32,000 nucleotides of DNA from contig NZ_LT934425.1 in the NCBI RefSeq assembly GCF_900232105.1, positions 660,001 to 692,000 on the forward strand. The letters run 5' to 3'. Shown here piece after piece: positions 5,547-30,659 of the stretch. This DNA is from Candidatus Kuenenia stuttgartensis. GTDB lineage: Bacteria > Planctomycetota > Brocadiia > Brocadiales > Brocadiaceae. Made by a program: the position numbers and the translations under genes. Within the stretch, counting starts at the first letter, position 1. Each line of letters starts with the position of its first letter. A model generated the notes under the pieces. The model was not told where the DNA came from. It made no database searches and was given only the letters and a program-made list of their open reading frames with translations.

Positions 5547-5588
5547 CCGAATATCTTCTTATAAATTAAAAACCATTTTTTATGTTAC

Positions 5589-14082: not shown

Positions 14083-14158
14083 TATACACTTGTATTATTC
14101 TTTATGCAACCACTGCCGGAATATAGAACAGCATATCTCTTTTGAACCTTTCACCAGA

Positions 14159-14231
14159 GTAGGGGCGAAGCATTTGCCCCCTTGGGCATGAACGCATTTA
14201 TAACAATTTATAGCAAATGCTCCGCCCCTGC
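14159..14231. repeat. 73-bp palindromic element, copy 1 (16-bp stem GGGGCGAAGCATTTGC / GCAAATGCTcCGCCCC, conserved loop of about 36 nt)
   Basis: Near-identical to 23214-23286 in the same orientation. One stem mismatch in this copy. Confidence 0.85.
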
Positions 14232-14358
14232 ATTATGCAGCAAACACCGCTATTCTCTATTGTAGATGACATCAAAATATGTCTTATAATTTCGTTATTA
14301 CCGTTGTTAAGGGAAGCCGTCAGGATCCCGTTTTTTTTAAAAGGAGGAATTAACTATC

Positions 14359-15141: not shown

Positions 15142-15178
15142 TAATAAGACATTTTAGGAGTCTGGTATTTTTTATTAT

Positions 15179-15208
15179 CCAGTCGGCAATCGGCAGATTG
15201 CCGACTGG
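15179..15208. terminator. Perfect 12-bp stem / 6-nt loop hairpin downstream of the aldolase gene (possible terminator or attenuator)
   Basis: CCAGTCGGCAAT-cggcag-ATTGCCGACTGG. A T-run precedes rather than follows it on the plus strand, so it is not a textbook intrinsic terminator. Confidence 0.35.
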
Positions 15209-15290
15209 ATACTGCGCACGGTAGCGCGCAAACCCACCATTTCACAATGTACATCCTGCGTTATAACGACCATAAGAAAAGGGGCATTAT

Positions 15291-16310
15291 ATGCGAGTAG
15301 CAATGTATTACAACAACAATGACGTCAGAATAGAAGAAATGCCAACTCCACAAATAGGGCCGGGCGAGTTATTGGTAAAAATATTCGCAAGCGGTATATG
15401 TGGCAGCGATGTAATGGAATGGTACCGCATTAAAAAGGCGCCTTTGGTTTTGGGTCACGAAATTGCAGGAGAAATAGTCGCCATTGGCGATGCCGTTAAA
15501 CAATTTAAAGTTGGCGACAGAGTTACCGTTGCACACCATGTTCCATGCAACACCTGCCATTATTGCCTGAATGGACATCATTCCGTGTGCGATACTTTAC
15601 GCACTACCAATTTTTATCCCGGTGGTTTTGCAGAATTTCTGCGTGTTCCACAAATCAATGTTGATCGCGGAACTTTTATTCTTCCCCAGGAGATGTCTTA
15701 TGATGAGGGAACCTTTGTAGAACCTTTGGCATGTTCAATTCGCGGACAACGACTGTCCAATTTTAAACCCGGACAAAGTCTGCTCGTTATCGGCAGCGGC
15801 ATATCGGGATTATTACATATTCAATTGGCGAGAGCGCTTGGCGCAGGCAAAATATTTGCAACGGACATAAACGAATATCGCCTGAAATTTGCAAAAAAAA
15901 TAGGGGCAGATATCGCAATTAACGCAAAAGAAGATGTGCCTTCCATTATCCGCAAAGATAATAATGGAAGATTGGCAGATTTGGCGATTGTGTGTACAGG
16001 AGCAATATCCGCAACAGAACAGGCCTTTCATTCCATAGAAAGGGGAGGGACTATCCTCTTTTTTGCACCAACGGAACCCGGGGTAAAAATCCCTATTGAC
16101 CTATGGAATCTTTGGCGTAATTGTAATTCTATTGTTATGTCCTATGCTGGCCCTCCTGCTGATATGGCGGTTGCAATTGAATTAATACGGACAGGTAGAA
16201 TTGCCGTAAATGATCTGATAACTCATAAACTACCGCTAAATGACGCTGCAAAGGGATTTAAACTGGTAGCCGACGCAAAGGAATCCGTGAAAGTAATTAT
16301 AGCGCCCTAA
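15291..16310 (+). CDS. Zinc-dependent medium-chain dehydrogenase/reductase (threonine/sorbitol dehydrogenase-like)
   Basis: Catalytic zinc motif GHEIAGEIVAIGDAV, structural zinc Cys cluster CNTCHYCLNGHHSVC, Rossmann motif VIGSGISG. Confidence 0.9.
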   Translation: MRVAMYYNNNDVRIEEMPTPQIGPGELLVKIFASGICGSDVMEWYRIKKAPLVLGHEIAGEIVAIGDAVKQFKVGDRVTVAHHVPCNTCHYCLNGHHSVCDTLRTTNFYPGGFAEFLRVPQINVDRGTFILPQEMSYDEGTFVEPLACSIRGQRLSNFKPGQSLLVIGSGISGLLHIQLARALGAGKIFATDINEYRLKFAKKIGADIAINAKEDVPSIIRKDNNGRLADLAIVCTGAISATEQAFHSIERGGTILFFAPTEPGVKIPIDLWNLWRNCNSIVMSYAGPPADMAVAIELIRTGRIAVNDLITHKLPLNDAAKGFKLVADAKESVKVIIAP

Positions 16311-16460
16311 AAGTAAACCAGTTTAAAATCGATAATCACCAGTAGGCAGTCGTACAAGATTACAGACTGGAGATTGAGTATTGAGTACCTCTGATCGCAC
16401 CATTAAAAATTTTGGAAAAACGTGCGAAGAAATAACTTTTACGGTACTAAGAAGGGATAA

Positions 16461-17549
16461 TTAATCAATAACCAGACTAATGCGCTTGTGCATTTGAGCA
16501 GTTTGCGAGAGACCGGAAACGTTTTCTTTTATATCCTGTTGATCAGGCTGTATGGATAATGACTTTTCCCACATTTTCCGCGCCTTTGCAGGATTATTCG
16601 TCACTTTGTAACAATTCCCCAGTAAATTATACAGCGGCACAGCTTCATCCCCGACTTTGTTCTCCGACCAAAGAGAATCAACAAAATCTGTCGCTTCCTT
16701 TGTTCTCACATACTCTTCTAAAATGTGAACCGCATCATCATATTTCTGTTGTTTATAATAAAGTCTTCCAAGGTTATAATATGCGTCTAAATATGCTGTA
16801 TCCAACCGGATTGCCATTACAAAAAATGATTCGGCCTGTTTATCAAAATCCGTTTTTAAGCAACACTCGCCAAGCAGATTATAGGCCTCTGCGTTATTCG
16901 TGTCTTCCAGCACCGCTTCCCTGAGATGGTGCATTGCCCGAGGATAATCTTCTTCTCCCTTGTATACAATGCCAAGCAAGTAATGCACCTCGTAATTGGC
17001 AATCTCTTTTTTCATAAAATAGAGCAAAATCCCCTTCGCTTTTGAAATTTCATTGCTTTTTATCAGCAGTTTTGAGATATTCACCGCGGCAGAAGTACTA
17101 TCCGGCTGCAATCTCAATGATTCGGCAAAAAACGCTTTAGCGTCCTCTTCATTACCGTTTTTAGCGCAACATATTCCCATAAGATTATACGTATCCGCAT
17201 CTTCCGGATTCGCCACTACAACCTCCTTAAAATGCGAAAGAGCCATACTGTATTCTTCCCGGTCCATATACAGAAAAGCAAGGTTATAATGAACGTCTAT
17301 TAAATCAAAATCAATGTGTAATGCTTGCCTGAAATTTTCAATTGCTTCGGAATAGTTATGGTTTCTTGTGTAATAAATACCGAGAAGATTAAAACCCTCT
17401 GCGTAATTGGGGTCTGCATCCACTGCTGCTTTTAGATATTTAAACGCCATACCCCAATCATCTTTTTCTATCAGGTCCTTCGCGCGCGAAACATTTATTT
17501 CAAAATCTGTATTGCCATTTAGAGCGCTGCTTTCTTCAACAATAAACAT
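16461..17549 (-). CDS. Tetratricopeptide (TPR) repeat protein
   Basis: 362 aa with repeated 34-aa A-x-x-[YF]-x-x-[AL]...P...A...LG units (AEGFNLLGIYY, ADTYNLMGICC, AEAYNLLGECC, and others). Last gene of the flagellar-strand cluster. Confidence 0.85.
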   Translation of the reverse strand: MFIVEESSALNGNTDFEINVSRAKDLIEKDDWGMAFKYLKAAVDADPNYAEGFNLLGIYYTRNHNYSEAIENFRQALHIDFDLIDVHYNLAFLYMDREEYSMALSHFKEVVVANPEDADTYNLMGICCAKNGNEEDAKAFFAESLRLQPDSTSAAVNISKLLIKSNEISKAKGILLYFMKKEIANYEVHYLLGIVYKGEEDYPRAMHHLREAVLEDTNNAEAYNLLGECCLKTDFDKQAESFFVMAIRLDTAYLDAYYNLGRLYYKQQKYDDAVHILEEYVRTKEATDFVDSLWSENKVGDEAVPLYNLLGNCYKVTNNPAKARKMWEKSLSIQPDQQDIKENVSGLSQTAQMHKRISLVID

Positions 17550-17627
17550 GGTTAGTTTCCTTTAAATTAAGAGATATTCCTGTAAAATACGCAAAATAAT
17601 TACCTCAAACTGTACCACAGTGCACAA

Positions 17628-17921
17628 TTAATCTGCGTCTTCAACTGCCTCCCTTTTTGCTATAAATTTTTCTTGAAAACGAAAATCCTCTCCAATATGC
17701 CTCCATTTTTGCGCAACTTTTACCAACTCATTTTTGGATACTTTTGAAGACTCTCTATTCTGGGATTGGATTTTTTCATAAACTTCTTCCCTGTGAATCT
17801 CAATGTCCTTTGGAGCGATAATTCCCAATTTCACCTGTCTTCCCTGAAATTCTAAAACGGTAATTTTTATCTCATCACCTATGGTTATGCTTTCTCCCAA
17901 CTTCCTTGTTAGTATAAGCAT
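17628..17921 (-). CDS. csrA: Carbon storage regulator CsrA (flagellar-type, paired with FliW), with a long C-terminal extension
   Basis: [51 protein letters not shown] is a near-consensus CsrA core. GAGGAG SD lies 7 nt upstream of the ATG at 17921. The tracked ORF start (18026) adds 35 non-homologous residues. Confidence 0.9.
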
Positions 17922-18160
17922 CGCTTCTCCTCTATTGAAAGTGTATAAAAATAACGTACCGTGCAGTAAACGTATATCTCTTTCCCCAAGACCTTTTTGA
18001 AGAACAAAGAAAGAAACTGGCTGCAAATAATAGAATACTATTCGTATTAAACTGCCTGTAAGCGTCCGGGCAGAGGCGCATCATAGTAAAGCAATGCGTC
18101 TGCATCTCATAATAACATTTATTATGGTTGTGCACCCGAACAACGCAGGGGTATATTCAA

Positions 18161-18610
18161 TTAAGCATTTTTTTGCACAAGCGGATAATGTAATGCGTAA
18201 TAATCATCTGTTAATACGAATTGCTTCCCCTTGTTGTTTATCATATTTACAAGTATAGGCCCTTTCAGGTTTATGGTTACATTGGAAGCATCATCTCCAA
18301 TGTTTACTATACAAAATATTTCAACCTTTTCCTTGTTGCCCATCTCCAACGCTGAAACATCATCAATCTTTTTCAATGGGTCATAGTCGGTGAAAAGAGG
18401 AACCGGGTTTATGACGGGTAACGCAACAAGGGGGTTATCAACCGAAACCAACCATTCAAAAGGCCGGCAGTCAGGAAAATTAACAAGAATGAACTGTTTA
18501 AGCTCTTCGTACCCTACAATGCCGTCTTCAAACCTGATAATATCTTCTTTGTTATAACCTAACTCACCCAACTTTTCCGTTTTTAATGTCTCCATTTTCT
18601 TCTGCTCCAT
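18161..18610 (-). CDS. fliW: Flagellar assembly factor FliW
   Basis: 149 aa. IRFEDGIVGYEELKQFILV, FEWLVSVDNPLVALPVINP and NLKGPILVN are typical FliW segments. Located between flgL and csrA, as in many flagellar loci. Confidence 0.85.
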   Translation of the reverse strand: MEQKKMETLKTEKLGELGYNKEDIIRFEDGIVGYEELKQFILVNFPDCRPFEWLVSVDNPLVALPVINPVPLFTDYDPLKKIDDVSALEMGNKEKVEIFCIVNIGDDASNVTINLKGPILVNMINNKGKQFVLTDDYYALHYPLVQKNA

Positions 18611-18873
18611 TTTTGTTTTTACCTCCTATAAAAAATAAGGTTAAAGAGATTTATATGCTACGTGGCGGTTAATTAAGCAAACACAATACCATTTGTAAAC
18701 AAGTAAAATCAATAACCACACAAAGCCGCTTATGTAATTGTGAGAATAGGAGTTATAAAACTTTAAAATAACGATAGGCTCTGTAGCAACAAGGGATGAG
18801 ATTTTTTACTTTGGAGAGAGTACGGGCAATAACGTTGAAATTATTTACCCATGATGTTGATAATTTAGACAAT

Positions 18874-19791
18874 CTATCCGCCAATAAAATCTAGCAATGA
18901 CGGCTGAATAATCCTGGCGCCGGTCTGCAGTGCTGCTTGCAGCACATTTTCCTGATTTTTTAATTCTGTGATTAAGGATGCTAAATCAGCATCTTCGGTA
19001 TAAGAGATTAATTCTTTCAGCGCTATTTTCGAGTTTTCGACTCTATTTTCCGTTATTGCCAATCTATCGACTTTTGCGCCAAACTTTGTAATCTCTGTCA
19101 GTACGTTATTATTTGCCGTTTCAAAATTTTTCTTCTGTGATAAAAAAGCGTCTGTATCAAAATCGCTTTTTTTCAATTCGTCGCGTAAATTTATAAGATT
19201 TGCAAATATGCCGTTTTCCATAAACAGCTTTCCGCCAGGCTGGTTCACTTGTATAAATGTATTGCTCCCTATCTGATATTGTATTGTTTCATTATTGCCA
19301 TCATACTTTACGCCTGTTATCTCACCGCCTGAATCTCTTGTCGCTCTGAAGGGGGCAGTTAAGGTTTTTGTTCCCGAGAAAAGATACCGTCCGTTGCTAT
19401 CCGTTATGTTTGAGAATTGAATAATTGTCTCCATTAACTCATCAATCTCGCTTGCAATAATTCCCCTTTCACTATCCCCAAGCGTACCATCCGCCGCCTG
19501 CACCGTTTTGGTCTGAATCTTCACCATAATGTCCTGTATGTTTTCCAATGCATCGAAGATGAAGTTTATTTTATCTCTCGCATGTTTAATAGCGTCTAAA
19601 TATTGCTGTAATTCATTTTCCCCGGATTTAAATCCAAGTAATTTTCTCGTGCTTACAGGATCATCTGATGCGCGGTTTATCTGCTTACCGCTGGAAAGCT
19701 TTTCCTGTATCTCCTGCATTTTCTTGTAATTTAGCTGGATGTTAGAAAGCGTCGTATTACTTAAACTCGCCTGCGTAACTCTAAAAGACAT
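18874..19791 (-). CDS. flgL: Flagellar hook-associated protein 3 (FlgL)
   Basis: Flagellin-like N-terminal helix (MSFRVTQASLSNTTLSNIQLNYKKMQEIQEKLSSGKQINRASDDP) and C-terminal helix (LKNQENVLQAALQTGARIIQPSLLDFI). Follows flgK. ATG 19791 lies 8 nt downstream of GGAGG; the tracked GTG start lies inside that SD. Confidence 0.85.
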   Translation of the reverse strand: MSFRVTQASLSNTTLSNIQLNYKKMQEIQEKLSSGKQINRASDDPVSTRKLLGFKSGENELQQYLDAIKHARDKINFIFDALENIQDIMVKIQTKTVQAADGTLGDSERGIIASEIDELMETIIQFSNITDSNGRYLFSGTKTLTAPFRATRDSGGEITGVKYDGNNETIQYQIGSNTFIQVNQPGGKLFMENGIFANLINLRDELKKSDFDTDAFLSQKKNFETANNNVLTEITKFGAKVDRLAITENRVENSKIALKELISYTEDADLASLITELKNQENVLQAALQTGARIIQPSLLDFIGG

Positions 19792-19874
19792 GGCGTCATC
19801 CTCCACAACTCATTAAAATTATTCTACCGGTGTCCCGCATTTCACTTTAGTACGAAAGACCACTCAACCCGCCG

Positions 19875-21845
19875 TTACAATGAATTTAATAAGGTATTTA
19901 TTAATCTGTCAACGGTTGATATATATTTTGCCGACGCCTGATACGCCTGTTGAAATCGTATCAGGGTAACCAGTTCTTCATCAATATTTACCCCGGAAAC
20001 CTCTTCTCTTCTGTTCTGAAGACTCCCCTCCAATGCCGTATACTTCTCCTCAGACTTATATGCACTATTCGCCTCTTCTCCTAATGCCGCGGCAATTTGA
20101 TGTAAATAATCAGATAAGGTAGTATTTCCAACAATACTGTTATCATTTTGTAATGCGGATAAACGCAAGGCATTTGTATTATCCCCTGATTCACCTATAG
20201 ATGTTGCAATTAGTGTTACATCCTCCCGTATCCTTTTTTCAATATTAATATCCGAAGCATCTTTACCGCTAAAAAAAGTATTAATTCCCAAAGCAGCAAG
20301 CAAGTCAGTTTCATCAGAATCATTTATAACATCTATATCAAATGTATCTCCTGTATTAATATCACCTGCCGAAAACGAGACAGAAACACCATTTGCAACC
20401 GCAAGGGTATTGCCAGGAGTATATCCTTCACCTACATCAAGTGTAGCAATAAGATTTGAACCGCTATCCCTGACTTCAACCTGAAGACCTGACGTAGTCC
20501 CTATTGTGCCGCCTGCCCCTAAAGCTGTGAATGTATATACATCATTTGTACTTCCATTGTATATACCCGAAATTGAAGGCGTTGTTGTTCCTGTAATTCC
20601 AGTGGTTTGAGGATTCGGGTCCAATGCATAAGAAAAATTAAATTTATACCCGGAGTCTGCGGTAATCTGCAATTTGCCGTCTGAAATAGCAGAGGAAAGA
20701 TTTGTTATCCCATCAATATCAGCGCTTAATTTTGTAAGCGAATCATTTGCTACATCCACCGTAATTTTGTTTTTGACCTCTTCCCCTGTACTCGTATTTA
20801 TTACCGTAACATATATATCTCCGCTCGATGGTGCAAAAGGCAGCCCCAGACCCGCAGTATTCAATGCCTTAGTTGCGTCCGTCACCTTATTTGTCCCAAG
20901 TACCGTTGTAAACCCGCCGTCTGTGCCTACGCCTTCACTATGAATCGCATTAAATTTCTTTATAAGCGCGGTTGCAAAGGTATCCAGTTTAGCATCGTAT
21001 GCAGGCAACGTGTTGTTATACATCTCCAACAAACCGCTCAATTCACCGCCAGTAGGTTTGTGTTTCGAACTTCCATAGCTGGTAATATTGAGCTTGCCAC
21101 TTGAATCTACGCTGGATTCAAGGGTTAACGCATTTGAACCACTCACCAGGACTCCACCTGCAATCATCACATCTATCATGCCGTTCTTCTGCGTCCTTGT
21201 TGTGACGTCCAAAAACTTGCTGATTTCGCCGAGGAGCGTCTCTCTTTTGTCCAACAGGTCATTCGGCTCCCCGCCTGTTGTTTGCAGCGAGTGGATTTCC
21301 TTATTAAGGTCAACGATATCTTTCGCCAGCCCGTTTACTTCATTAAGTTTGGATTCCACGGATTGTTTGACAAATTCCTTCATCATGCCCAGCTCGTCAA
21401 CTATTGCACGTATGGATTCGGTCATGGTAATCGCCTTTTCCACAAGCACAGAGCGTGAACTGGTACTCTCGTCCTGCGAAAGGTCGTTCACAAATTTAAA
21501 GAAGCTTGTCAAGGAATTGCTTATACTGGCATCGCTTAATTCGTTAAATACCGTTTCAAGTTCTCTCAATTGCTGACTTTTTATAGAGGAGGCGCCAAGC
21601 GATGAAGTGACAAACCTGATCCGGCTATTAAGGTAGTCATCCTTCTGCCGCATTATTTTCACCAGGTCAACGCCCTGCCCGATAGAACCGATAGTCGTCT
21701 GCAAGGGTAGTCTTGTTGCAAGACTGACCGTTTGTTTCGTATATCCTTTTGTATTTGCATTCGATATGTTATGTGCGGAAACCATCATTGCACGCTGCGC
21801 CGCAAGAACTCCGCTCATACCAATTTGTATATCTGACGAGGCCAT
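19875..21845 (-). CDS. flgK: Flagellar hook-associated protein 1 (FlgK)
   Basis: N-terminal rod/hook signature GMSGVLAAQRAMMVSAHNISNANTKGYTKQ, C-terminal LIRFQQAYQASAKYISTVDRLINTLLN, and a large Thr/Gly/Ser-rich variable middle region. Confidence 0.9.
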   Translation of the reverse strand: MASSDIQIGMSGVLAAQRAMMVSAHNISNANTKGYTKQTVSLATRLPLQTTIGSIGQGVDLVKIMRQKDDYLNSRIRFVTSSLGASSIKSQQLRELETVFNELSDASISNSLTSFFKFVNDLSQDESTSSRSVLVEKAITMTESIRAIVDELGMMKEFVKQSVESKLNEVNGLAKDIVDLNKEIHSLQTTGGEPNDLLDKRETLLGEISKFLDVTTRTQKNGMIDVMIAGGVLVSGSNALTLESSVDSSGKLNITSYGSSKHKPTGGELSGLLEMYNNTLPAYDAKLDTFATALIKKFNAIHSEGVGTDGGFTTVLGTNKVTDATKALNTAGLGLPFAPSSGDIYVTVINTSTGEEVKNKITVDVANDSLTKLSADIDGITNLSSAISDGKLQITADSGYKFNFSYALDPNPQTTGITGTTTPSISGIYNGSTNDVYTFTALGAGGTIGTTSGLQVEVRDSGSNLIATLDVGEGYTPGNTLAVANGVSVSFSAGDINTGDTFDIDVINDSDETDLLAALGINTFFSGKDASDINIEKRIREDVTLIATSIGESGDNTNALRLSALQNDNSIVGNTTLSDYLHQIAAALGEEANSAYKSEEKYTALEGSLQNRREEVSGVNIDEELVTLIRFQQAYQASAKYISTVDRLINTLLNSL

Positions 21846-21857
21846 AACCTATTCCCT

Positions 21858-22382
21858 CTAAATTTTAGTGTCAACCAAAACCCTTGATACTTCTTTTTCC
21901 TTCATTTTCCCTGTATTCTTATATACGGAGTGCTTAAAGACAGGCGGACAAAATATATCAATAATATCCTCTGTAATTTCAAGCGAATGATGGGTAAGAG
22001 CCGTATTCATCTCATTTAGCCTTTGTAATTCCACCATTGACTTTGTTAATCTGTCAACCAGTGTTCTCCAGGTATTGCCATGAAGTTCTTCCCCTTTATC
22101 CATCATTTTACTCATGGATATTTCCCTTACCTTTAAACCTTGTTTTTCGCAATACCGGCGTATTATCCTTTGGCGTTTTTCCTCAAGAAGTTGCGCCAGT
22201 TCCGCCTTGTTTCTCTCTGCGTAGATAAGCGTTTCCAGCTCTTCAATATTACAGGATATAAGACAGGCGTGCTTTGTCTTTGCAATTTCTACTAATTCAC
22301 CGTAAACAACCGACAATCTTTCCAGCGTGCCGGTTAGTTCCGTAAGCAAGGCGTCTATAACGTTGTTCTCTTTAATTCTCAT
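21858..22382 (-). CDS. FlgN-like flagellar export chaperone (putative)
   Basis: 174-aa helical protein immediately upstream of flgK, the position FlgN normally occupies. The N-terminal LIDALLTELTGTLERL...EL segment is FlgN-like. Assigned mostly by position. Confidence 0.5.
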   Translation of the reverse strand: MRIKENNVIDALLTELTGTLERLSVVYGELVEIAKTKHACLISCNIEELETLIYAERNKAELAQLLEEKRQRIIRRYCEKQGLKVREISMSKMMDKGEELHGNTWRTLVDRLTKSMVELQRLNEMNTALTHHSLEITEDIIDIFCPPVFKHSVYKNTGKMKEKEVSRVLVDTKI

Positions 22383-22387
22383 TGTCT

Positions 22388-22837
22388 TTACCCTTTAAAA
22401 TTAACAGAAGCCATTTCTTTATTTATTCCCACATCTTCACCGTTTCCTTTTTTACTCCATTTTTCCGGTAAAGATGGCACATTTTTACCGAACGCTTCCG
22501 TCACGACATTTTTAGGTTTTAATTGATTGTATATAACAGGCGCAACTCCAAAGCCGCCTTTTGCCGCTAAATCTTCAGCAAGGGCATTCTGCATTATTTC
22601 CGTATAACCTTGCATACCCCCCCCACCGTCAAACAAACCACCCTTTGGTATCGTTTTCCACATTGCTTTTACCACAAAATTCAATAAAACAGCCTCGAAA
22701 TCCTGCGCTATCTTCCGGAGAGACGCATCATCATTGGTAATTTTCTTTTGACCGGCAAGACTATTTAAGTTACTAATGCTGCTTGAATGAACAGGGTCAA
22801 TTTGCAAAAACGGGTTGATGTCTAAACTTGTTTCCAT
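22388..22837 (-). CDS. Rod-binding (FlgJ N-terminal domain-like) protein
   Basis: LRKIAQDFEAVLLNFVVKAMWKT...YTEIMQNALAEDLAAKGGFGVAPVIYNQL matches the rod-binding domain pattern (FEa.fl..mlksMr...y.dm....la..la..gglGlA..ly.ql). No muramidase domain present. Confidence 0.7.
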   Translation of the reverse strand: METSLDINPFLQIDPVHSSSISNLNSLAGQKKITNDDASLRKIAQDFEAVLLNFVVKAMWKTIPKGGLFDGGGGMQGYTEIMQNALAEDLAAKGGFGVAPVIYNQLKPKNVVTEAFGKNVPSLPEKWSKKGNGEDVGINKEMASVNFKG

Positions 22838-23213
22838 TTAATACGTTCCTAACTTTAACAGGTTACAAACCGGACACGAACATACAAGCTTGTCCGCTTT
22901 TTGGAGCACACTATTTTCCAGAAAACTGTGAAGGCTTTTTCAATCTGTCTATAGCAAAGAGCAAAGGTAATACCATAATCGCCCATTTTGTGAAACACTG
23001 TATATACGGTGCTTATCTATCTGACTTTTATTAAATAACTTATACAATTATTTGGTTTTTAATATTTCACAAATCATTCATTTTTTTAAAAACAAAAGGG
23101 GGAAACGTTTCCTATTTAATGAGAAAATTATTCCTGTAGCATCTATCGGCAGTTCATATATTAAACCTTACGGCAAAAGGATGTATTAAAAACAACCGGT
23201 AAAAATAATCATA

Positions 23214-23286
23214 GTGGGGGCGAAGCATTTGCCAGTTTGGGTATTAACACATTTATGACAATTTATAGCAAATGCTTCGCCCCCAC
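23214..23286. repeat. 73-bp palindromic element, copy 2 (perfect stem GGGGGCGAAGCATTTGC / GCAAATGCTTCGCCCCC)
   Basis: Same orientation and near-identical sequence to 14159-14231, including the loop (..TTGGGyATkAACrCATTTATrACAATTTATA). Lies about 100 nt upstream of the STAND NTPase start. Confidence 0.85.
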
Positions 23287-23388
23287 TTTATTTTATGCAT
23301 GGTAATACTTATAAAAATTCATATACTATGAACGTAATAATCGCCAGGTACTTTTTTATACACGCTATTTTGAAAGGACAATCTGCCA

Positions 23389-26289
23389 ATGGATGATCGT
23401 TTTCCAACGAATGGAAATGGAGTGGAAAGTCAATCCACTTTAAAAATCCGGTTAGAAAACCTATTGGAAAAGGAAGCAATGATACACAATGCATTTTCCT
23501 CAAGCAGAACGGAACTGTTTGTGGGCAGGCAAAGATATTTTGACCGGCTGGATGAACACATACACGGGGATACTCCCCCACTCATTGTAACCGGCAAACC
23601 GGGGATGGGGAAATCAGCGCTTCTTGCAAATTGGAGAAAACGCTATATCTCCTTAAATCCTGCCAACAAAACCATAATACATTTCATCGGCATTTCACCC
23701 CGCACAAGCAGTTTAGCATCTATGCAGCTACGCATTATCCATGAATTAACCTATGGATTTAACCTTCCTCCGGATATTCCCACTAATCAGAACGACCTCA
23801 ACGTCGCATTTGTCAATGCCCTTTTCATGTCCGCTGCAAAAGGCAAAGCGGTTATTATTCTGGACGGTATCGAACGATTGGAGGGAAGAGACCCCGCACA
23901 AGTCTTATCATGGCTCCCAATTGAAGTGCCTGCGAACATACGGTTTATTTTGTCCGTATCGCCCGGAACCGTATTTGATGTTGTTGCAAAACGTAACTGG
24001 CCTGTTCTTGAAGTAGCACCTCTTGAAGTTGTTGAGCGAAAACAATGTATTCACGCATATCTCCAGAATACTCATTCAACAGCATTAAGCGAAAACCATA
24101 TAAATACAATCGTCCATGCCGTCCAAACATCCAACCCGCTCTACCTTGATATACTCATGGGGGAATTATGTATTGACGACGCCCCCTCCATTGCCGGACA
24201 AAAAATAAGCCGGTATCTCTCCGCACAAAATATTGAGGAACTCATTCTCAGGGTTATTGAACGATACGAACTCGATGATACACTGAACGGCGCTGATGCG
24301 TCATTTTTCCGGAATATCATGTCATTGTTGTTAAGCGCAGGAAACGGACTCATGGAAAATGAAATAAACGAACTGCTCCGTGGGGAAACACCGTCACCGC
24401 AAAATACGCCATTAAAAACCTTGCTACCAAATATGAAACATATCCTGATACAACATTCAAATCTCATTCTTTATAAACACAATGCCTTTCATGATGCGAT
24501 AAAAAGCAGGTATCTCTCAGAAGAAGATGAGAAAAGGCGGTTTCATTTACGTCTTGCAGATTATTTCGGGAAAAACTATTCGAGTCAGCGCGCAATTGAA
24601 GAATTTCCGTGGCAACTGACTCAGGCAAGGTCATGGAATCAGTTATTCGGACTTCTCTCTGATATATCCTTTTTCAATGTCTTGTATGAAACAAGCGCTT
24701 ATGCGGCAACGTATTATTGGTCGCAATTGGAAGAAAACTCTCAAATGCGCATTCCATACGCATATTGCACCATTTTAGAGTCCCCGGAGAATTATATTGA
24801 CCGCATTAAAAACCTTTCCTTTTTTTTAAAGGAGAAAAACCTCCTTACAGAGGCATTGAAGATGTTTGAACATCTTGTCTGTTATTATGAACAAAACAAG
24901 GACTACGAAAATCTGCCCGTAGCCGTCGGAATACTTGCAGATATCCTTTACGAAAGGGGCGGCATGGAAGAATCCATGCAATTACACAAGGATGAAGAAC
25001 ACATTTACCGGAGCGTTGGAAATAATTACGGATTAATGCGCTCCTTGTCACGTCAGGCAGTTATTGCCCTTGCCAACGATGATTTGGAGAACTCCCTACA
25101 TCTCTTCAGGCAGGAAGAACAACTCTGCCGTGAATTGAACGATACTTATCGGCTGTCGTATAATCTTAACAAACAGGCGGAAATACTGTCTCTCCGGCAC
25201 AAAACCACCCTTGCCGCAAAACTGCTTACGGAAGCGGAATCTATCAGCCGCGGCATAGGTGATATGTCAGGATTATCCGTGTGTTTAGGCAACAAAGCCC
25301 GCATAAAAAAGGGTTCCGGAAATCCGGAAGAGGCGATGACCTTTCTGAAAGAACAGGAGCATCTTTGCCGCACCCTGGGAAATAGCAAGGAACTCTCCGT
25401 CTGCCTTGGAAATCAATCGCTTATTCTTACCACCCTTGGAGACCTTGATGGCGCATTCGTTTTACTGAAAGAAGAGGAATCTCTCTGCAAAAACATGCGC
25501 AACGAACACGGGCTATCCTATAACATCGGGAACAGGGCAAATATCCTTTCGATACGCGGTAATCTTGCAGAGGCACTGGAATTATATAAAGAACAATTCT
25601 CACTATTCAAAAAGACACTAAACAAACACGGACTATCATACAATCTAGGCAACCAGGCAAACATTCATTATTCACTGGGAAATGCAGAGGAAGCAATGTC
25701 GTTCTACACGGAACAGGAGCGTTTATGCAGGGAACTGGAAAATGAGGACGGATTATCCTATGCACTCGGTAATCAGGCGATCATTCTTGCGGAAAAAGGC
25801 GACCCTGATAAAGCAATGGAATTGCATAAAGAAGAAGAGCGCATTTGCAGGAAATTTAACAATATGGAAGGATTGCAACGCTCTCTGGGCAACCAGGCAA
25901 GTATATTGTATAGCAAGGGTCATTTGCATGAGGCGCTCGCCCTCCATAAAGAAGAAGAGCGTCTATGCAGAAAACTTGGAAACAAGAGCGAACTTTCAGC
26001 CTGCCTTGGTAACCAGGCGCTTGTCGTTAAGGATCTGGGGAATCCGGATGAGGCGATTGGACTATTAAAAGAACAGGAAGCTATTTGCAGAGATCTTGGG
26101 ATAAAGAGCGGGCTTGCTATTTCATTGGCAAATCAGGCAGAGATGCTTGCGCAAAATCCGGGACGGGCAGATGAAGCACTGCCTCTTGCCGAAGAAGCCT
26201 ATTCAATTACCACTTCTTTCGGTTTTCAGTCATTATCTCACGAAATAGAACCCATTTTACGCGCAATTGAATCCCGATTGGGCAAATAG
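23389..26289 (+). CDS. STAND-class (NACHT-like) P-loop NTPase with a C-terminal array of about eleven 40-aa TPR units; no recognisable effector domain
   Basis: Pre-NTPase FVGRQRYFDRLDEHI, Walker A GKPGMGKS (aa 69-76), Walker B AVIILDG (aa 154-160), followed by a helical/winged-helix-like region. From about aa 500 there are repeating units of the form L(S)xxLGNQAxILxxxGxxxEAxxLxKEEExLCRxLxNxxG. Confidence 0.85.
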   Translation: MDDRFPTNGNGVESQSTLKIRLENLLEKEAMIHNAFSSSRTELFVGRQRYFDRLDEHIHGDTPPLIVTGKPGMGKSALLANWRKRYISLNPANKTIIHFIGISPRTSSLASMQLRIIHELTYGFNLPPDIPTNQNDLNVAFVNALFMSAAKGKAVIILDGIERLEGRDPAQVLSWLPIEVPANIRFILSVSPGTVFDVVAKRNWPVLEVAPLEVVERKQCIHAYLQNTHSTALSENHINTIVHAVQTSNPLYLDILMGELCIDDAPSIAGQKISRYLSAQNIEELILRVIERYELDDTLNGADASFFRNIMSLLLSAGNGLMENEINELLRGETPSPQNTPLKTLLPNMKHILIQHSNLILYKHNAFHDAIKSRYLSEEDEKRRFHLRLADYFGKNYSSQRAIEEFPWQLTQARSWNQLFGLLSDISFFNVLYETSAYAATYYWSQLEENSQMRIPYAYCTILESPENYIDRIKNLSFFLKEKNLLTEALKMFEHLVCYYEQNKDYENLPVAVGILADILYERGGMEESMQLHKDEEHIYRSVGNNYGLMRSLSRQAVIALANDDLENSLHLFRQEEQLCRELNDTYRLSYNLNKQAEILSLRHKTTLAAKLLTEAESISRGIGDMSGLSVCLGNKARIKKGSGNPEEAMTFLKEQEHLCRTLGNSKELSVCLGNQSLILTTLGDLDGAFVLLKEEESLCKNMRNEHGLSYNIGNRANILSIRGNLAEALELYKEQFSLFKKTLNKHGLSYNLGNQANIHYSLGNAEEAMSFYTEQERLCRELENEDGLSYALGNQAIILAEKGDPDKAMELHKEEERICRKFNNMEGLQRSLGNQASILYSKGHLHEALALHKEEERLCRKLGNKSELSACLGNQALVVKDLGNPDEAIGLLKEQEAICRDLGIKSGLAISLANQAEMLAQNPGRADEALPLAEEAYSITTSFGFQSLSHEIEPILRAIESRLGK

Positions 26290-26290
26290 A

Positions 26291-26428
26291 GTAAAACTAT
26301 TCAGCGTAATCTATCAAAGGGAATATGCCCTGTTTTTGTGCAGGAGGTAAGAATAGATAATAGATTCGAGGGGAGCATTCCCGGTTTTTTGTAAAAATGC
26401 CATTAGCGGGGAGGGAAAGAATAGTAAC
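26291..26428. repeat. Degenerate relative (or solo end) of the 27499-27658 MITE
   Basis: GTAAAACTATTCAGCGTAAT at 26291-26310 matches the MITE terminus GTAACTATTCAGCGTAAT apart from a 2-nt insertion. GAATAGTAAC at 26419-26428 resembles the opposite terminus. No target duplication seen. Starts 2 nt after the NTPase stop codon. Confidence 0.35.
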
Positions 26429-26637
26429 TCAAGCTTCCAGCTTGAGGGTAAAATACCACGAGCAGTCATCATGTTGCATTTGCAACACCCAGAAACGATG
26501 AAAATGATTTTATAACCATATCGTGTTGCGGTACCTGTGCTTGAGCTATTTCTTGTAGTCTTTTTTCGAGCCAGGATGCTTGTGTTACAAAGTACAATTA
26601 GTTAACCAAAAATCTGGAATGCTCCTGTTCAAATTAT

Positions 26638-26778
26638 GTCCCCCGCTGGCGGGGGTGCAGGGGGTGGACTGGATTTCTCCATCGATTCAACTACCCCTTC
26701 ATTATGAAAACAAATTTGCCCCTTTTCCCCGCGCTCCGCAGACAATTCCACCCCCTTAATCCCCCGCCAGCGGGGGAC
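26638..26778. repeat. 141-bp inverted-repeat element with terminal arms of about 31 nt, each arm containing its own hairpin
   Basis: 26638-26668 reads GTCCCCCGCTGGCGGGGG-tgca-GGGGGTGGA. The reverse complement of 26747-26778 reads GTCCCCCGCTGGCGGGGG-attaa-GGGGGTGGA. That is 18 + 9 identical nt. The core CCCCCGC-TGG-CGGGGG is itself palindromic. Confidence 0.6.
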
Positions 26779-27197
26779 AGGCTTGCCACCTCCTTTGCAG
26801 CTTTCATGCCCTTGTGGGGTTGATCCATGTGCATTCCAGGTTTTTTATTACTTCTGCCATGTTTTAATGAAACGTACAATAGTATTAACCACTGGCAGCG
26901 TTGTTTTGCCCCAATCACACATACGGTTACAAAAAATCGGGAATGCTCCTGAGTAGATAGTAGACAGTGCCCGTCCCTCATTCCACCGTTGTGCAGAGAC
27001 GCACTGTATTGTGTACAAGCTACCAGCCTCTTGAGTTAACACCTTTAGCAAACTTATGGTTGGTGCAATCTTTTAAATTGATACAGTGCAGTTATTTTTC
27101 AAAACACAATTCCGGTAAAATAATTTTCAATTCAATGCCTATCAGACAGGAGAGCCTTTTTCGTTTGACAAAAGCCTTCAAATGGATGATGCCGAAA

Positions 27198-27367
27198 CCC
27201 GCAGGCGGAGGGTCTTACACCATTGCCCTGAAGTTTGATGGGACGGCCCATGCATGGAGATATAATACTTATGGTGAATTGGGGACGGGACGACCACGCA
27301 GAGCGCTACACCGATACAGGCAAGCAATCTCCTCTTAAAACCGGCAATACCAACAGCAACCACTTGA
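27198..27367 (+). pseudogene. RCC1-like repeat gene fragment (frameshifted 3' end)
   Basis: AGGGSYTIALKFDGTAHAWRYNTYGELG, then after a 1-nt frame slip DGTTTQSATPIQASNL...*. This matches the RCC1 blade pattern (htlALksDGtvwaWGyNsyGqLGdGtt..r.tPvqv). No upstream continuation. The junction with the integrase remnant (27305-27365) is ambiguous. Confidence 0.4.
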
Positions 27368-27878
27368 CAATAAGCTGAGGAGAGCCTTCAATATAATTTA
27401 TTATTTGACGAACCTCTTCACGGGTCATGACTACTGGAATATTCGTCTTCTTCTGTGCACGTATAGCGTTAATCTCTTCTTTTAATGATACTTTTAAAGT
27501 AACTATTCAGCGTAATTTCTTTAACTACCATATATGACAAAAAAGGCCAAAATCACAGATATTATCCAGAAGTTGTATTGCTATATATAGACAAGAAGCG
27601 TAAATTAATGGGTTTTTGCCATATATTGTACTTTTACTCAAACACGCTGAATAGTTACCTTTTAAAACCTTCTTATACAAAAATACAAGTGCGTTCATAG
27701 CCTGGTTTTGGGTAGAAGGGGCAACGCAAGATTTCACGGCAAGGTGGGTCAAAAATTGTTCTATTTTTTCTTCACCGTCCATTAAATCCTCTTGACTGGT
27801 CATTCGGTGGTATTGAATATAGCCAAACAAATATGATTTTAGGAATTTGGCAATAAAATGGCTTTCTAAAAAACAGAT
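27309..27878 (-). pseudogene. Integron-integrase-like tyrosine recombinase, N-terminal remnant (truncated, MITE-disrupted)
   Basis: EEKIEQFLTHLAVKSCVAPSTQNQAMNALVFLYKKVLK | (MITE) | VSLKEEINAIRAQKKTNIPVVMTREEVRQIINYIEGSPQLIVK closely follows the IntI N-terminal pattern (FLtHLA....vsasTqNQAlsAllFLYreVL...l..i.rakr...lPvVlTreEv..ll..l.g...l...LLYGtG). The catalytic C-terminal two thirds are absent. Confidence 0.7.
27499..27658. mobile_element. 160-bp MITE inserted in the integrase gene
   Basis: Perfect 15-bp terminal inverted repeats GTAACTATTCAGCGT (27499-27513 and the reverse complement of 27644-27658). They are flanked by an 8-bp direct duplication CTTTTAAA (27491-27498 and 27659-27666). 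AT-rich non-coding interior. Removing the element plus one duplication restores a continuous integrase reading frame (..FLYKKVLKVSLKEEINAIRAQ..). Confidence 0.85.
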
Positions 27879-28082
27879 TTATTTGACTAAGCATACTATA
27901 CAAGCACGCCCCTTAATTCCCTCTTTATAGAGAGGACTGGGAGGTGTAAATTTTTCGAAAACCTTATTTGTTTGACTATATATCATTTGATTCAATCACA
28001 GTATGATCGTTCTGTATGGAGGGAATAATGCTTAAGCCTCATTATATCTTTTACTTTATTTGGCAACCCCCCCCTTTTTTGA

Positions 28083-28243: not shown

Positions 28244-29416
28244 ATGAATGCCAACGCTCAAACAGGAGACACTCAAGACGCTGCTCGCTTGCGTGCGCTT
28301 CTTTCTCAGCTCAATTGGCTAAACGCCCTCAACGACGAGCCCGCCAACGGGGTTTACGAGTATCAGTTCCATTCGGACGCTCACATCACTGGTGAATTCA
28401 CGTCGGGCTTAGGCCCCTATAGCTTTCTCAATACAGTGCCAATACCTGATACGCCGGGAATCGTAACTGCACCAATCATTCTACGTTTGGTTGATCATCT
28501 TCCTGAATATCGACCGGACATGTCAAAAAAGGACGAGACGTTTTATCACGGTGGGACGATGGTTGATGAACTTGCGGCACTATCATCACTGTGCATCGGT
28601 GCTCGAATTATGGCGGGCGGCGAATCGCGGCGATTTGAACCCGGCAAGGATCCAATGGGACGGCCCTGCGCATGGGATTACAAACCAGCGCCATTCCTTC
28701 GTGTACGACCTGGGCGCTATGTTCTTCCTTCCATCACTGGCACCCATTCACTCGATAATCTTAACATGCTGAAGTCAATTCCCAAGATATCACCGGAGAG
28801 GTATGTCAATCTCATCCGGTCCTGCATTGCATATCAGGATGCTCTTTGGGCTGCTGAATCGGAGCCTCATCTTGCTTGGTTGCTGTTCGTATCTGCTCTT
28901 GAAACTGCGGCAAACGACATCTATCTGTCGGATAGATCTCCAGCCGAACGCCTGAAAGATGCGAAGCCAGACGTGGCAACCATTCTTGATGAAGCGGGCG
29001 GCCATCAATTGGTCGAGAAGATTGCCAAACTGATTGCGCCTTCTTTGGGTGCCACAAAGAAATTTCTGGACTTCACCCTAAATTTCGGACCGAACGAGCC
29101 AACTGATCGGCCGGATCAAGAATGGCTGCGCGTGAAATGGTCGAAGACCAACCTCAAGCATACTCTCAGCAAAGTTTACAATTACCGATCTCGCTCACTG
29201 CACGGTGGTTTACCGTTCCCAGCTCCAATGTACGATCCACCTTTCTATTTCGATCGTAAGTCAAAGCCATCTGAGGTCCCACTAACTGGCCTCGCATCAC
29301 ATTCACGCGGCGGTACGTGGTTGCCTGAGGATATGCCAGTAAATCTACATTGTTTTCACTACATCACACGTGAGACCTTGATTAATTGGTGGCGTAATTT
29401 AGCGAATGAGAGATAA
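28244..29416 (+). CDS. Orphan 390-aa protein; C-terminal helical region with an Rx4H (HEPN-like) motif
   Basis: Long ORF with a GGAG SD 8 nt upstream, visibly more G+C-rich than its neighbours. The C-terminal half is helical (ERYVNLIRSCIAYQDALWAAE, LAWLLFVSALETAANDIY, LKHTLSKVYNYRSRSLHGG, NLHCFHYITRETLINWWRNL) with R315-x4-H320 encoded at 29186-29203. I recognise no family for the N-terminal 180 aa. The confidence value applies to the CDS call. The functional guess is far weaker. Confidence 0.8.
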   Translation: MNANAQTGDTQDAARLRALLSQLNWLNALNDEPANGVYEYQFHSDAHITGEFTSGLGPYSFLNTVPIPDTPGIVTAPIILRLVDHLPEYRPDMSKKDETFYHGGTMVDELAALSSLCIGARIMAGGESRRFEPGKDPMGRPCAWDYKPAPFLRVRPGRYVLPSITGTHSLDNLNMLKSIPKISPERYVNLIRSCIAYQDALWAAESEPHLAWLLFVSALETAANDIYLSDRSPAERLKDAKPDVATILDEAGGHQLVEKIAKLIAPSLGATKKFLDFTLNFGPNEPTDRPDQEWLRVKWSKTNLKHTLSKVYNYRSRSLHGGLPFPAPMYDPPFYFDRKSKPSEVPLTGLASHSRGGTWLPEDMPVNLHCFHYITRETLINWWRNLANER

Positions 29417-29457: not shown

Positions 29458-29920
29458 GCTTGGGTTTGGATAATAGGGTGAGATTAATCGAAATACCGTT
29501 GACGCACCGCAAACGAGTTACAGACCTACCGGAATTAACAGGTCAAGGACACACTTCCCAGTGCTTGTGTGTGTGCAGTAAGGAAACAAGTCGCTAACGT
29601 ACCTGCACGAAATCGTAGAACTGCCGGTATTCAGGTATCACCTAAGTTATCCAATGGTCAATTATGCAGAACGGGGGAATACTGTCATTTCGCCATATAC
29701 AACACCATGGCAGGTCAACTGCAAGGCAGGCTGATGAAAGGGCAGTACTGAGAAGTTGGAAAAAGCAAATGTCATTCTATAATGGCGTGAATAGGGTATG
29801 AAACATGACTTGACTCTAAAAGGTCGGGAATCAAACTTTTCGATTCTGAAAGGAATGCCTACTTCCAACAGGTGTTTCATTGCGGGAAAATTGAAAGAAT
29901 ATTCGGAGGCAGGAACGCAA

Positions 29921-30142
29921 ATGACGGGAATCAATCCTGGTGCTCTTCCCGATGATGCAATAACGTGGCATACCATAAATTGGGATGCTGCAAGGCGTCA
30001 CGTCAGAAGACTGCAAATGCGTATCGCAAAGGCTGTAAAGGAAGGAAGACCAGGCAAGGTGAAAGCTTTGCAATGGCTCCTTACCCACTCTTTCCACGCC
30101 AAGCTCCTGGCTGTTAAAAGAGTGACCTCAAAATCGAGGTAA
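29921..30142 (+). pseudogene. Group II intron reverse transcriptase/maturase, N-terminal 73-aa fragment
   Basis: [70 protein letters not shown] matches the conserved N-terminus of bacterial intron-encoded proteins (W..i.W......V..LQ.RI.kA...g...kvk.Lq.lLt.S...kllAv.rVt). GGAGG SD upstream. After a frame slip (..NRGKTV) the ORF joins directly to the extreme C-terminal/domain V region, so RT domains 1-7, X and En are deleted. Confidence 0.7.
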
Positions 30143-30184
30143 AACAGTCTGGTTGTCCTACAAGGGCAGCTTATTGAAATACTT

Positions 30185-30218
30185 GAGCTGTATGGTGGGA
30201 AACTATCACGTACAGTTC
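30185..30218 (+). ncRNA. Group II intron domain V
   Basis: GAGCTGTATGGTGG-GAAA-CTATCACGTACAGTTC is 34 nt, with the AGC catalytic triad, a 2-nt CG bulge on the 3' strand and a GAAA (GNRA) tetraloop. A U-A pair replaces the usual C-G at position 5/30 (compensatory change). Confidence 0.85.
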
Positions 30219-30273
30219 TTAGGAGGGTATCGGGCAGCAATGCCCGTGACCTATCCGATTCCGTTGAAAGGAA

Positions 30274-30317
30274 GTGAGGACGACCTCACCGCTCCAATAT
30301 ACATAGGGGACGACCTC
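30274..30317 (+). promoter_or_regulatory. Guanidine-II (mini-ykkC) riboswitch
   Basis: Two tandem hairpins, each with an ACGA loop closed by GG/CC: GTGAGG-ACGA-CCTCAC (30274-30289) and GGGG-ACGA-CCTC (30306-30317), separated by a 16-nt linker. They sit just upstream of the GAAGG SD and the ATG of an SMR/SugE gene, the classic genetic context of this riboswitch class. Confidence 0.8.
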
Positions 30318-30338
30318 AGCATTTGTGAAGGCAAATAT

Positions 30339-30659
30339 ATGGCGTGGATCATTCTTGTTATTGCGGGACTGTTTGAGACTGGCTGGGCGATCGGGTTGAA
30401 GTACACCGAGGGGTTCACCCGATTGTGGCCTACGGTCTGGACAGTCTTGGCGATGATTATCAGTCTTTGGTTACTGGGCATTGCCTTGAAGTCGCTTCCG
30501 ATTGGCACCGCTTACGCCATTTTGGTAGGAGTTGGAACCGTCGGAACCGTTGCGCTAGGCATCGTACTGTTTGGAGAATCTACGAATACTGCCCGGCTCA
30601 TCAGCATTGCTCTGATTATTGCCGGTATCGTCGGGCTTAAGCTTGCGACACCGGCCTAA
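30339..30659 (+). CDS. sugE: SMR-family guanidinium exporter (SugE/Gdx)
   Basis: 106 aa, four TM helices. [31 protein letters not shown]...[27 protein letters not shown] includes the essential membrane Glu in TM1 and the SugE-type KYTEGF motif. I reject the tracked 30153 start because its first 62 codons are intron domain V/VI plus the riboswitch. Confidence 0.92.

Follow-up and report, generated by a model that had tools for sequence, protein, structure and literature searches.

An NLR-like STAND NTPase gene without an N-terminal NIR module, kept beside a variable island in Candidatus Kuenenia stuttgartensis

The stretch of DNA analysed here (the window) comprises 32,000 nucleotides of the Candidatus Kuenenia stuttgartensis chromosome (contig NZ_LT934425.1, positions 660,001 to 692,000), and its subject is the plus-strand gene at 23389-26289 (stop codon included), which starts with ATG and encodes a 966-aa effector-less, NACHT-like STAND NTPase with an array of tetratricopeptide repeats (TPRs), as judged from the open reading frame (ORF) listing, scans with Pfam, NCBIfam and PADLOC, orthologues and dN/dS. 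The protein belongs to a large, phylogenetically scattered family whose canonical architecture is a NIR/DUF4062 NADase, a NACHT-like STAND NTPase and 40-aa TPRs; a module of ~200 aa, consisting of NIR plus linker, is lost in the Kuenenia lineage, and the NTPase-TPR chassis is kept. The gene is a NIR-less, NLR-like member maintained by selection, and we consider it probable that its product is still a STAND switch, more likely repurposed than acting in front-line defence.

The NTPase-TPR chassis and the missing module

A search spanning 5.8 billion proteins returned the window protein itself and two proteins of the same length, P0002 from Ca. Kuenenia sp. (71 % identity) and P0003 from a Planctomycetes metagenome-assembled genome (MAG; 69 %), the Kuenenia-lineage orthologues as a set being 93, 71 and 69 % identical to it. 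Logan-derived sequences account for 27 records of the identical protein. About 90 further relatives match at 25-43 % identity with ~95 % query coverage, are mostly 1000-1500 aa long and carry PF13271/DUF4062; the chassis of the NIR-bearing proteins shares 30-43 % identity with the window protein over ~95 % of its length. Pairwise BLASTP places the beginning of homology at query residue ~26, which corresponds to residue ~190-240 in nearly all of the 91 homologues compared, and the C-termini coincide (offset 0 or ±1) with those of P0002, P0003, P0009, P0013, P0015, P0016, P0025 and P0029. Because of this start offset and the coinciding C-termini, the window protein is taken to lack a ~200-aa N-terminal module and not to be truncated at its 3' end. 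The co-terminal orthologues and many distant homologues rule out a C-terminus shaped by insertion, and with it the suggestion, made in the first-pass annotation of this DNA, that the ORF might be cut short at 26289.

The locus scan took one genome per species and yielded at least 537 related loci; counts given here come from the best 80, 73 of which have a readable 5' end. An in-frame DUF4062/NIR module is present in 67 of these 73 (E <= 1e-59), nearly always with the motif S[VIL]TE[LM]E, and a family profile matches the solved human TEP1 NIR domain (PDB 11gz_A) with an E value of 2e-50, exactly over the N-terminal module. Three preprints of 2026 identify DUF4062 ('NIR') as a TIR-like NADase effector, which is reported from NLR-like and Avs proteins (10.64898/2026.09.04.749371, 10.64898/2026.05.01.722283); Swarozyc, Evangelion, Vulcan/Vesta and a Pseudomonas Avs2 all use it as their effector, and it sits before NACHT in human NWD1, NWD2, TEP1, NPHP3 and TTC41. 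The first-pass claim of an effector-less protein can be sharpened accordingly: the effector is absent, and the missing module can now be named as DUF4062/NIR.

Remnants of the module were sought in all six frames with tblastn and with hidden Markov models (HMMs) built from 18, then 69 NIR modules, the orthologous loci being taken with up to 10 kb of flank on each side where the contig allows. No NIR-like coding sequence was detected in the six frames of the 32-kb window or of loci L001, L007 and L008 with their flanks, and Pfam DUF4062 has no match in the window protein. The search has power, because it did detect frameshifted NIRs at L031 and L040, where the NIR lies in an adjacent frame, and a NIR-bearing paralogue just 5' of a NIR-less copy at L041. 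Scans with Pfam, NCBIfam and PADLOC found no domain N-terminal of the P-loop in the window protein either.

What precedes the chassis is a short tail (residues 1-30; 23389-23478, plus strand) that appears unconstrained and is disordered to about residue 23, being neither a domain nor a NIR vestige. In the AlphaFold2 (AF2) models residues 1-23 are predicted to be disordered (pLDDT <50; tail pLDDT 27-32), and the helix at residues 17-40 corresponds, by model and alignment, to the pre-P-loop segment of homologues. Compared with the orthologue of Kuenenia sp. Bin_40 (L007), residues 1-30 have taken 6 nonsynonymous and 0 synonymous changes, and the ORF of the K. hertensis orthologue (L006) starts at a Met matching window M31, with stop codons 5' of that start. 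A hidden mini-effector is excluded because of these 6 to 0 changes and the predicted disorder; the very small unrecognised N-terminal effector that had been envisaged before is refuted by the same data together with the K. hertensis start. Residues 14-20 (SQSTLKI) were also considered as a vestige, since MAFFT put them under the NIR motif SVTELEI, and this candidate was rejected by a shuffle test: the NIR HMM gave -0.9 and -1.0 bits, 23 of 500 and 139 of 500 shuffles did equally well, and the best alignment lay elsewhere than the motif. At the 5' boundary, a sequence resembling a ribosome-binding site, GAAAGGA (23372-23378, plus strand), stands 10 nt before the ATG and is also kept before the GTG with which the L001 gene starts; in the window gene the ATG is preceded, at a distance of 6 codons, by an in-frame stop, and stop codons are found directly 5' of the start in the window, L001 and L006.

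The absence of NIR is probably derived. In a neighbour-joining tree of the NTPase module, midpoint-rooted, without support values and indicative only, the three effector-less proteins form one long-stemmed clade among NIR-bearing lineages, which suggests loss in a single Kuenenia clade. Of 136 columns that are >=88 % conserved in NIR-bearing relatives, this trio has a residue other than the family's at 67; 9 of the 67 are tail residues 2-26, matched to the NIR motif by alignment alone, and the others include D108, W109, R138, D166, D172, R261, R318, W342, R356 and G358. With 67 of 136 near-invariant columns divergent, the clade-wide replacements indicate a changed constraint regime after NIR loss.

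The chassis itself shows the features of the STAND superfamily, namely a GxxxxGK[ST] Walker A, hhhhD at 155-159, a nucleotide-binding domain (NBD), helical and winged-helix domains and a C-terminal repeat sensor. The pre-P-loop helix and NBD span residues ~26-230 (23464-24078, plus strand), homology to NIR-bearing relatives beginning here in both BLASTP offsets and alignments, and strands 65-68, 94-99, 154-159, 184-190 and 206-208 form a parallel sheet in the AF2 model. Pfam AAA_16 matches residues 44-167 with 37.5 bits (cut-off 32.6); Pfam NACHT matches residues 65-227 with 23.9 bits, just under its cut-off of 26.7, and scores 32.7, 35.7 and 32.0 bits in P0003, P0005 and P0009. The Walker A or P-loop motif GKPGMGKS (residues 69-76; 23593-23616, plus strand) and the Walker B motif AVIILDG (residues 154-160; 23848-23868, plus strand) are where they had been read before, and G69, G72, G74 and K75 of the former and D159 of the latter, which is followed by I-E-R, are invariant across 47-50 family members. 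The NACHT signature D[GAS]hDE is partial, as D159-G-I-E-R provides the small, the hydrophobic and one acidic residue; the corresponding residues are DSIDQ in P0002, DSIDL in P0003 and DALNQ in most distant relatives in the alignment.

The helical and winged-helix domains of the STAND module, assigned from AF2 models and Foldseek, cover residues 231-485 (24079-24843, plus strand) and contain an invariant NPLYL motif. They are followed by the TPR solenoid (residues 486-965; 24844-26283, plus strand), the most constrained part of the protein, which is modelled as 12 hairpins of 40 aa and gives strong Pfam TPR_12, TPR_MalT and TPR_10 matches. Repeat identity is 35 % at lags 40, 80 and 120 vs 4-13 % at all other lags tested (30-49), and DNA repeat families are spaced at multiples of 120 nt; the 40-aa period noticed at first pass is thus far above chance, and its count of about eleven units becomes 12 in the model. 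In the full-length AF2 model (pLDDT 89.2, pTM 0.81) residues 486-965 form 24 helices at even spacing, and a fold search with this model returned the archaeal STAND-TPR protein 6mfv at the top, then LGN/Pins TPR domains. With the model of residues 1-530 (pLDDT 88.7), the best Foldseek match is Apaf-1 in its closed, ADP-bound form, then MalT, Avs3, CED-4, NOD2, Roq1 and NRC1; a PDB sequence search with the same residues found no relatives. Pfam and NCBIfam recognised no helix-turn-helix (HTH) or SARP domain, the MalT and AfsR models being matched by the TPR part alone and far below their cut-offs. HMM scans, fold search and the N-terminal model together bear out the earlier description of a STAND/NACHT-like NTPase with TPRs and no effector domain.

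Selection, synteny and the flanking island

Whole-gene dN/dS, calculated by the Nei-Gojobori method, is 0.19 for the window gene vs L006, 0.16 vs L001 and 0.21 vs L007, and 0.18 between L006 and L001, with a dS of 0.16 vs L007 and of ~0.9-1.1 vs the two distant orthologues. By part, the TPR region is most constrained (0.11-0.15) and the NBD ranges from 0.14 to 0.28; neighbouring genes range from 0.05 to 0.32, and the value of the window gene is comparable to those of the adjacent flagellar genes. The substitution pattern argues that the gene is under purifying selection and not decaying.

These values bear directly on the idea that the gene is a non-functional remnant or an annotation or assembly artefact, that is, a decaying NIR-NACHT-TPR pseudogene or a gene in which a frameshift or a wrongly called start conceals the NIR. 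At other loci the family does include copies split by frameshifts (the adjacent-frame NIRs of L031 and L040, and L089 in three pieces), and the Pfam NACHT score of the window protein falls slightly under the gathering threshold. Set against this are an unbroken ORF of 937-966 codons in 4 independent assemblies, dN/dS of 0.16-0.21, the lack of any NIR signal in any frame of the window or orthologous loci, the retained core NTPase residues and a confident structure prediction, and this explanation, extremely improbable in our estimate, is effectively excluded.

The window is colinear with K. hertensis over 12620-26267 (77-85 % nucleotide identity) and with Kuenenia sp. Bin_40 over 13406-26359 (93 %). 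The shared order is PALP, hexapeptide transferase, DeoC, ADH, a TPR protein, CsrA, FliW, FlgL, FlgK, FlgN and rod-binding protein, then the divergent STAND gene. The orthologues are chromosomal, syntenic and single-copy within the flanks examined, and the chassis has been inherited vertically at one chromosomal site. A phage-borne origin was ruled out, no relative being found among 2.9 M viral contigs.

This setting invites the explanation that the protein is a regulator or scaffold for motility and cyclic di-GMP signalling, a co-opted housekeeping STAND switch acting on flagellar assembly or on GGDEF/EAL neighbours. The gene lies divergently beside a late-flagellar cluster (rod-binding, FlgN, FlgK, FlgL, FliW, CsrA) in all three genomes with a visible upstream flank, PAS-GGDEF(-EAL) genes lie downstream in K. 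hertensis and L001, the locus is vertically inherited under purifying selection, and non-immune STANDs are interspersed among immune clades (PMC13581612). However, the gene is transcribed divergently and shares no operon with the flagellar cluster, unrelated island DNA takes the place of the GGDEF neighbour in both the window and L007, the adjacency is known from a single genus, the protein has no DNA-binding or signalling output domain, and the best 80 loci hold no comparably close relative from other anammox genera. We regard a role in motility or cyclic di-GMP signalling as quite unlikely. Chromosomal, vertically inherited homologues linked to a housekeeping pathway had been named at first pass as what would speak against an antiviral role; the orthologues are indeed chromosomal, syntenic, under purifying selection and beside flagellar genes, and the part that did not emerge is a functional link to the flagellar pathway.

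On its other side the gene borders accessory DNA. Synteny with K. hertensis and Bin_40 stops at or just past the stop codon, in agreement with the core/accessory boundary proposed earlier, and the STAND gene is the final one conserved before a variable integration hot-spot. Upstream, 102 nt 5' of the start codon in the divergent intergenic region, lies the palindromic repeat element that had also been noticed, now measured as 75 bp (23213-23287) with perfect 20-nt arms (23213-23232 and 23268-23287) around a 35-nt spacer. A second copy stands at 14158-14231, both copies being intergenic, and Kuenenia sp. Bin_40 has the element at the orthologous position (L007 9826-9899); the stretch 23171-23467 that holds it does not align with K. 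hertensis. An Rfam scan of the flanks and palindrome gave sub-threshold hairpin matches only, and the element looks like a dispersed repeat of the REP (repetitive extragenic palindrome) or MITE (miniature inverted-repeat transposable element) kind.

Downstream, a solo MITE terminus, AACTATTCAGCGTAAT, lies at 26295-26310 (plus strand), outside the coding region and inside the stretch aligning with L007; such a terminus had been reported 2 nt past the stop codon, and it exists, at a measured distance of 6 nt. Letter for letter, AACTATTCAGCGTAAT recurs as the terminus of a 162-bp MITE-like insertion (27499-27660), one of three small insertions in the window relative to L007, the others being 26360-26972 (613 bp) and 27822-27977 (156 bp). 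The 613-bp insertion is bounded by 23-nt terminal inverted repeats (GGAGCATTCCCGGTTTTTTGTAA; 26372-26394 and 26927-26949) and has inner repeat copies (26602-26627, 26826-26850) and a G+C-rich palindrome (26637-26779) inside it. The repeat on its left is also scored as a hairpin resembling a terminator, T-run included, and L001 has a copy of the GGAGCATTCCCGGTTTTTTGTAA repeat (3364-3402) downstream of its orthologue. An integrase pseudogene (Phage_int_SAM_4 fragment) at 27357-27830 on the minus strand is interrupted by the 162-bp MITE-like element, which has AAAGTAACTATTCAGCGT termini, and the 156-bp inverted-repeat insertion (27822-27977) follows as the second one; L007 has neither of them, and its 171-aa integrase remnant runs on unbroken.

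Homology of the window to L007 stops at 28222. Just past this point begins a plus-strand ORF of 390 aa (28244-29416), which has no match in Pfam, PADLOC, PHROGs or NCBIfam and is an orphan island gene; a reverse transcriptase N-terminal fragment (RVT_N, 29798-30142) and, immediately behind it, an SMR-family (small multidrug resistance) gene (30153-30659), both on the plus strand, are also found in this accessory island. The island of L007 (13191-16256) contains the integrase remnant and a pair made up of a type II N6/N4 DNA methyltransferase and an HNH endonuclease, and past it core genes resume (Methyltrans_SAM, GNA1162-like). The corresponding interval is taken up by PAS-GGDEF(-EAL) and further signalling genes in K. 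hertensis and L001, and K. hertensis has a Cas9 gene (Cas9_a, HNH_4, RuvC_III; L006 21695-22814) ~9 kb downstream of the orthologue.

Neighbourhoods of relatives and candidate roles

The defence-system library used was PADLOC-DB 2.0.0. For the window protein PADLOC returned a generic 'TPR' match and a marginal mad8 match, and no Avs/AVAST; the outcome was the same for the NIR-bearing P0005, P0009 and L041 copy. A known defence system was accordingly rejected as the identity of the gene, PADLOC giving no specific match, and the first-pass proposal of an Avs/bNACHT-type antiviral sensor is unsupported, there being no PADLOC Avs match. Some neighbours of NIR-bearing homologues match PADLOC models of MADS, Mza, TIR and AriA; these scattered matches, for which there is no proper background set, are suggestive only.

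Several arrangements among the relatives are of interest for the question of partners. At L041 (Planctomycetota MAG JAUWTM010000013) a NIR-NACHT-TPR gene (2668-5850) is followed 40 nt later, on the same strand, by a NIR-less NACHT-TPR paralogue (5891-8518), and this tandem pair could be a linked, sensor/helper-like arrangement; a second paralogue lies within 10 kb at 8 of 78 loci. MAG CBDUXL01 contributes at least 9 family loci among the best 80 matches (L028, L030, L042, L051, L054, L061, L074, L075 and L082), an NLR-like lineage-specific expansion. Stand-alone NIR/DUF4062 proteins of 218-275 aa are encoded on long contigs at L087 (4844-6828) and L088 (6001-6657), each lacking a NACHT neighbour, and are 51-55 % identical to the NIR module of a Scalindua homologue used as search query; in L087 a further small DUF4062 ORF, an AAA_14 gene and a TIR_2 gene lie close by. 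L089 was considered as a 'split' NIR-only gene beside a NACHT-TPR gene and was set aside, as it looks like one gene broken by frameshifts into three pieces.

These arrangements bear on the explanation that the window protein is the sensing partner in a split or paired immune system: its TPR array would detect a phage protein, after which the protein would co-oligomerise with, or activate, an effector encoded at another place in the genome (a paralogue that bears NIR, or a NIR protein standing alone), much as in sensor/helper NLR pairs. In its favour, the family is NLR-like, and experiments have shown the domain canonical at its N-terminus to be a defence NADase; the L041 pair joins a NIR-bearing and a NIR-less copy on one strand, paralogues lie within 10 kb at 8 of 78 loci and reach at least 9 copies in some MAGs, stand-alone NIR proteins exist, some neighbours of NIR-bearing homologues match the four defence models named above, and the gene abuts a variable island with a restriction-modification pair in L007. 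Against it, no NIR or paralogue is found within the flanks (up to 10 kb) of the four Kuenenia-lineage loci, the Kuenenia matches among the best 80 loci are the orthologues alone, PADLOC matches no system, and the sensor is under strong purifying selection at a locus stable across species. Neither protein search gave a Brocadiales-named NIR-bearing homologue, none occurring among the best 120 of 928 matches, which is a weak point as most entries are unnamed; the only other anammox match among the best 80 loci is the NIR-bearing Scalindua homologue, at 33 % identity. On balance a paired immune system appears rather unlikely. A more specific form of the idea, that a sensor NLR without its own NADase hetero-oligomerises with a separate helper (a NIR paralogue or stand-alone NIR), with the L041 pair as its linked form, is in our judgement unlikely. 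Were it true, the protein would be, to our knowledge, the first in bacteria to correspond to the sensor/helper NLR pairs known from plants and animals.

We propose instead that the protein is a repurposed receptor. It would still be a ligand-gated switch whose oligomerisation depends on nucleotide: at rest, the ADP-bound NTPase would be held closed by the TPR solenoid and the helical domains, and a specific ligand, protein or peptide, would on binding in the conserved TPR groove permit nucleotide exchange and homo-oligomerisation. The output would have to be non-enzymatic, because no catalytic domain is attached, and may consist of ligand sequestration or of an oligomeric surface to which a partner encoded by another gene is recruited. 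In our judgement a repurposed receptor, domesticated or regulatory, is somewhat more likely than a front-line abortive-infection system because the locus is stable and single-copy, the sensor is conserved, the replacements are clade-specific and no partner was found in the flanks (up to 10 kb) of the four loci.

Several points weigh against this proposal. Oligomerisation and nucleotide switching are predicted from homology and fold; the dS of ~0.9-1.1 to the two distant orthologues is near saturation; and the tree behind a single-clade loss, midpoint-rooted and without support values, is indicative only. By analogy, effector-less copies can belong to immune gene pairs, because the NIR-less copy of L041 stands directly behind its NIR-bearing paralogue. 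The low dN/dS of the TPR region is itself compatible with immunity, because those Avs-type receptors which recognise conserved phage folds typically have conserved sensors too, and the border with a hot-spot that holds a restriction-modification pair in L007, together with the Cas9 gene ~9 kb downstream in K. hertensis, is compatible with a defence-island position.

Comparison with known systems

The usual view of NLR-like STAND receptors in bacteria is that each is a self-contained 'sensor-switch-weapon' polypeptide. The bNACHT/NLR-like STAND chassis and the NIR effectors (2026) are known already; our literature search found no description of a long-lived, syntenic, selection-maintained NIR-less clade, and a search on Kuenenia and NACHT gave no relevant result. 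The locus offers a clean natural case of weapon deletion, in which sensor and switch persist at a fixed site over species-level divergence (dS up to ~1). It may serve as a test case for how immune STANDs turn into non-immune regulators and for whether bacteria use sensor/helper NLR pairs, its practical value being moderate, as the host is an uncultured, genetically intractable anammox bacterium.

The closest known systems are the bacterial NIR(DUF4062)-STAND-repeat proteins, with which the window protein shares a homologous NTPase-TPR chassis and, presumably, the logic of a C-terminal repeat sensor and a central oligomerising NTPase; unlike them it has no NIR NADase and so no NAD+-depleting activity of its own. 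The family is not the Avs2 clade itself, because neither the window protein nor its NIR-bearing relatives have a PADLOC Avs match. Like the bNACHT proteins, it is a bacterial NACHT-like STAND with a repeat-type 'antigen receptor' C-terminus, and the Walker A, which is required in bNACHT proteins, is intact; bacterial NACHTs outside clade 14 typically bear N-terminal effectors and the NACHT signature is D[GAS]hDE (Kibby et al., 10.1101/2022.07.19.500537), whereas the window protein has no N-terminal effector and a partial Walker B signature (DGIER).

In structure, residues 1-530 resemble Apaf-1, CED-4 and MalT best, with a query TM-score (TMq) of 0.51-0.54 over ~470 columns for ADP-bound Apaf-1 and 0.49 for MalT; alignment of ~470 of 530 columns is consistent with a shared multi-domain STAND module. 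Sequence identity in these matches is 12-14 %, and the window protein differs in having neither the CARD of Apaf-1 nor the LuxR-type HTH of MalT, and a TPR sensor, not WD40. The TPR array is best matched by LGN/Pins/GPSM2 (target TM-score, TMt, up to 0.83; profile E 2e-25), then by kinesin-light-chain TPRs; both bind extended peptides in the inner groove and are themselves without an NTPase, and the likeness is one of repeat type only, with no functional relationship implied.

Among animal proteins, NPHP3 and TTC41 (NIR-NACHT-TPR) have the same architecture as the bacterial family, and NWD1, NWD2 and TEP1 are NIR-NACHT-WD40, the TEP1 domain being the one matched by the family NIR module (E 2e-50). 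The window protein gives weak Pfam matches to NPHP3_N, NPHP3_hel and TPR_NPHP3 (14.6, 16.6 and 21.5 bits vs cut-offs of 24.8, 27.9 and 100), and the same resemblance is seen in its relatives, all scores being sub-threshold. NPHP3 is described in a 2026 preprint as having a NIR without NADase activity and a non-immune ciliary role, and a survey of STANDs found defence and non-defence clades interspersed, 'suggestive of many functional switches', few of which are documented (PMC13581612). The Kuenenia protein parallels NPHP3, which belongs to the same architectural family, has a NIR without NADase activity and plays a non-immune role; the eukaryotic NIR proteins retain the NIR fold, whereas in the Kuenenia protein it is deleted, and no orthology is implied.

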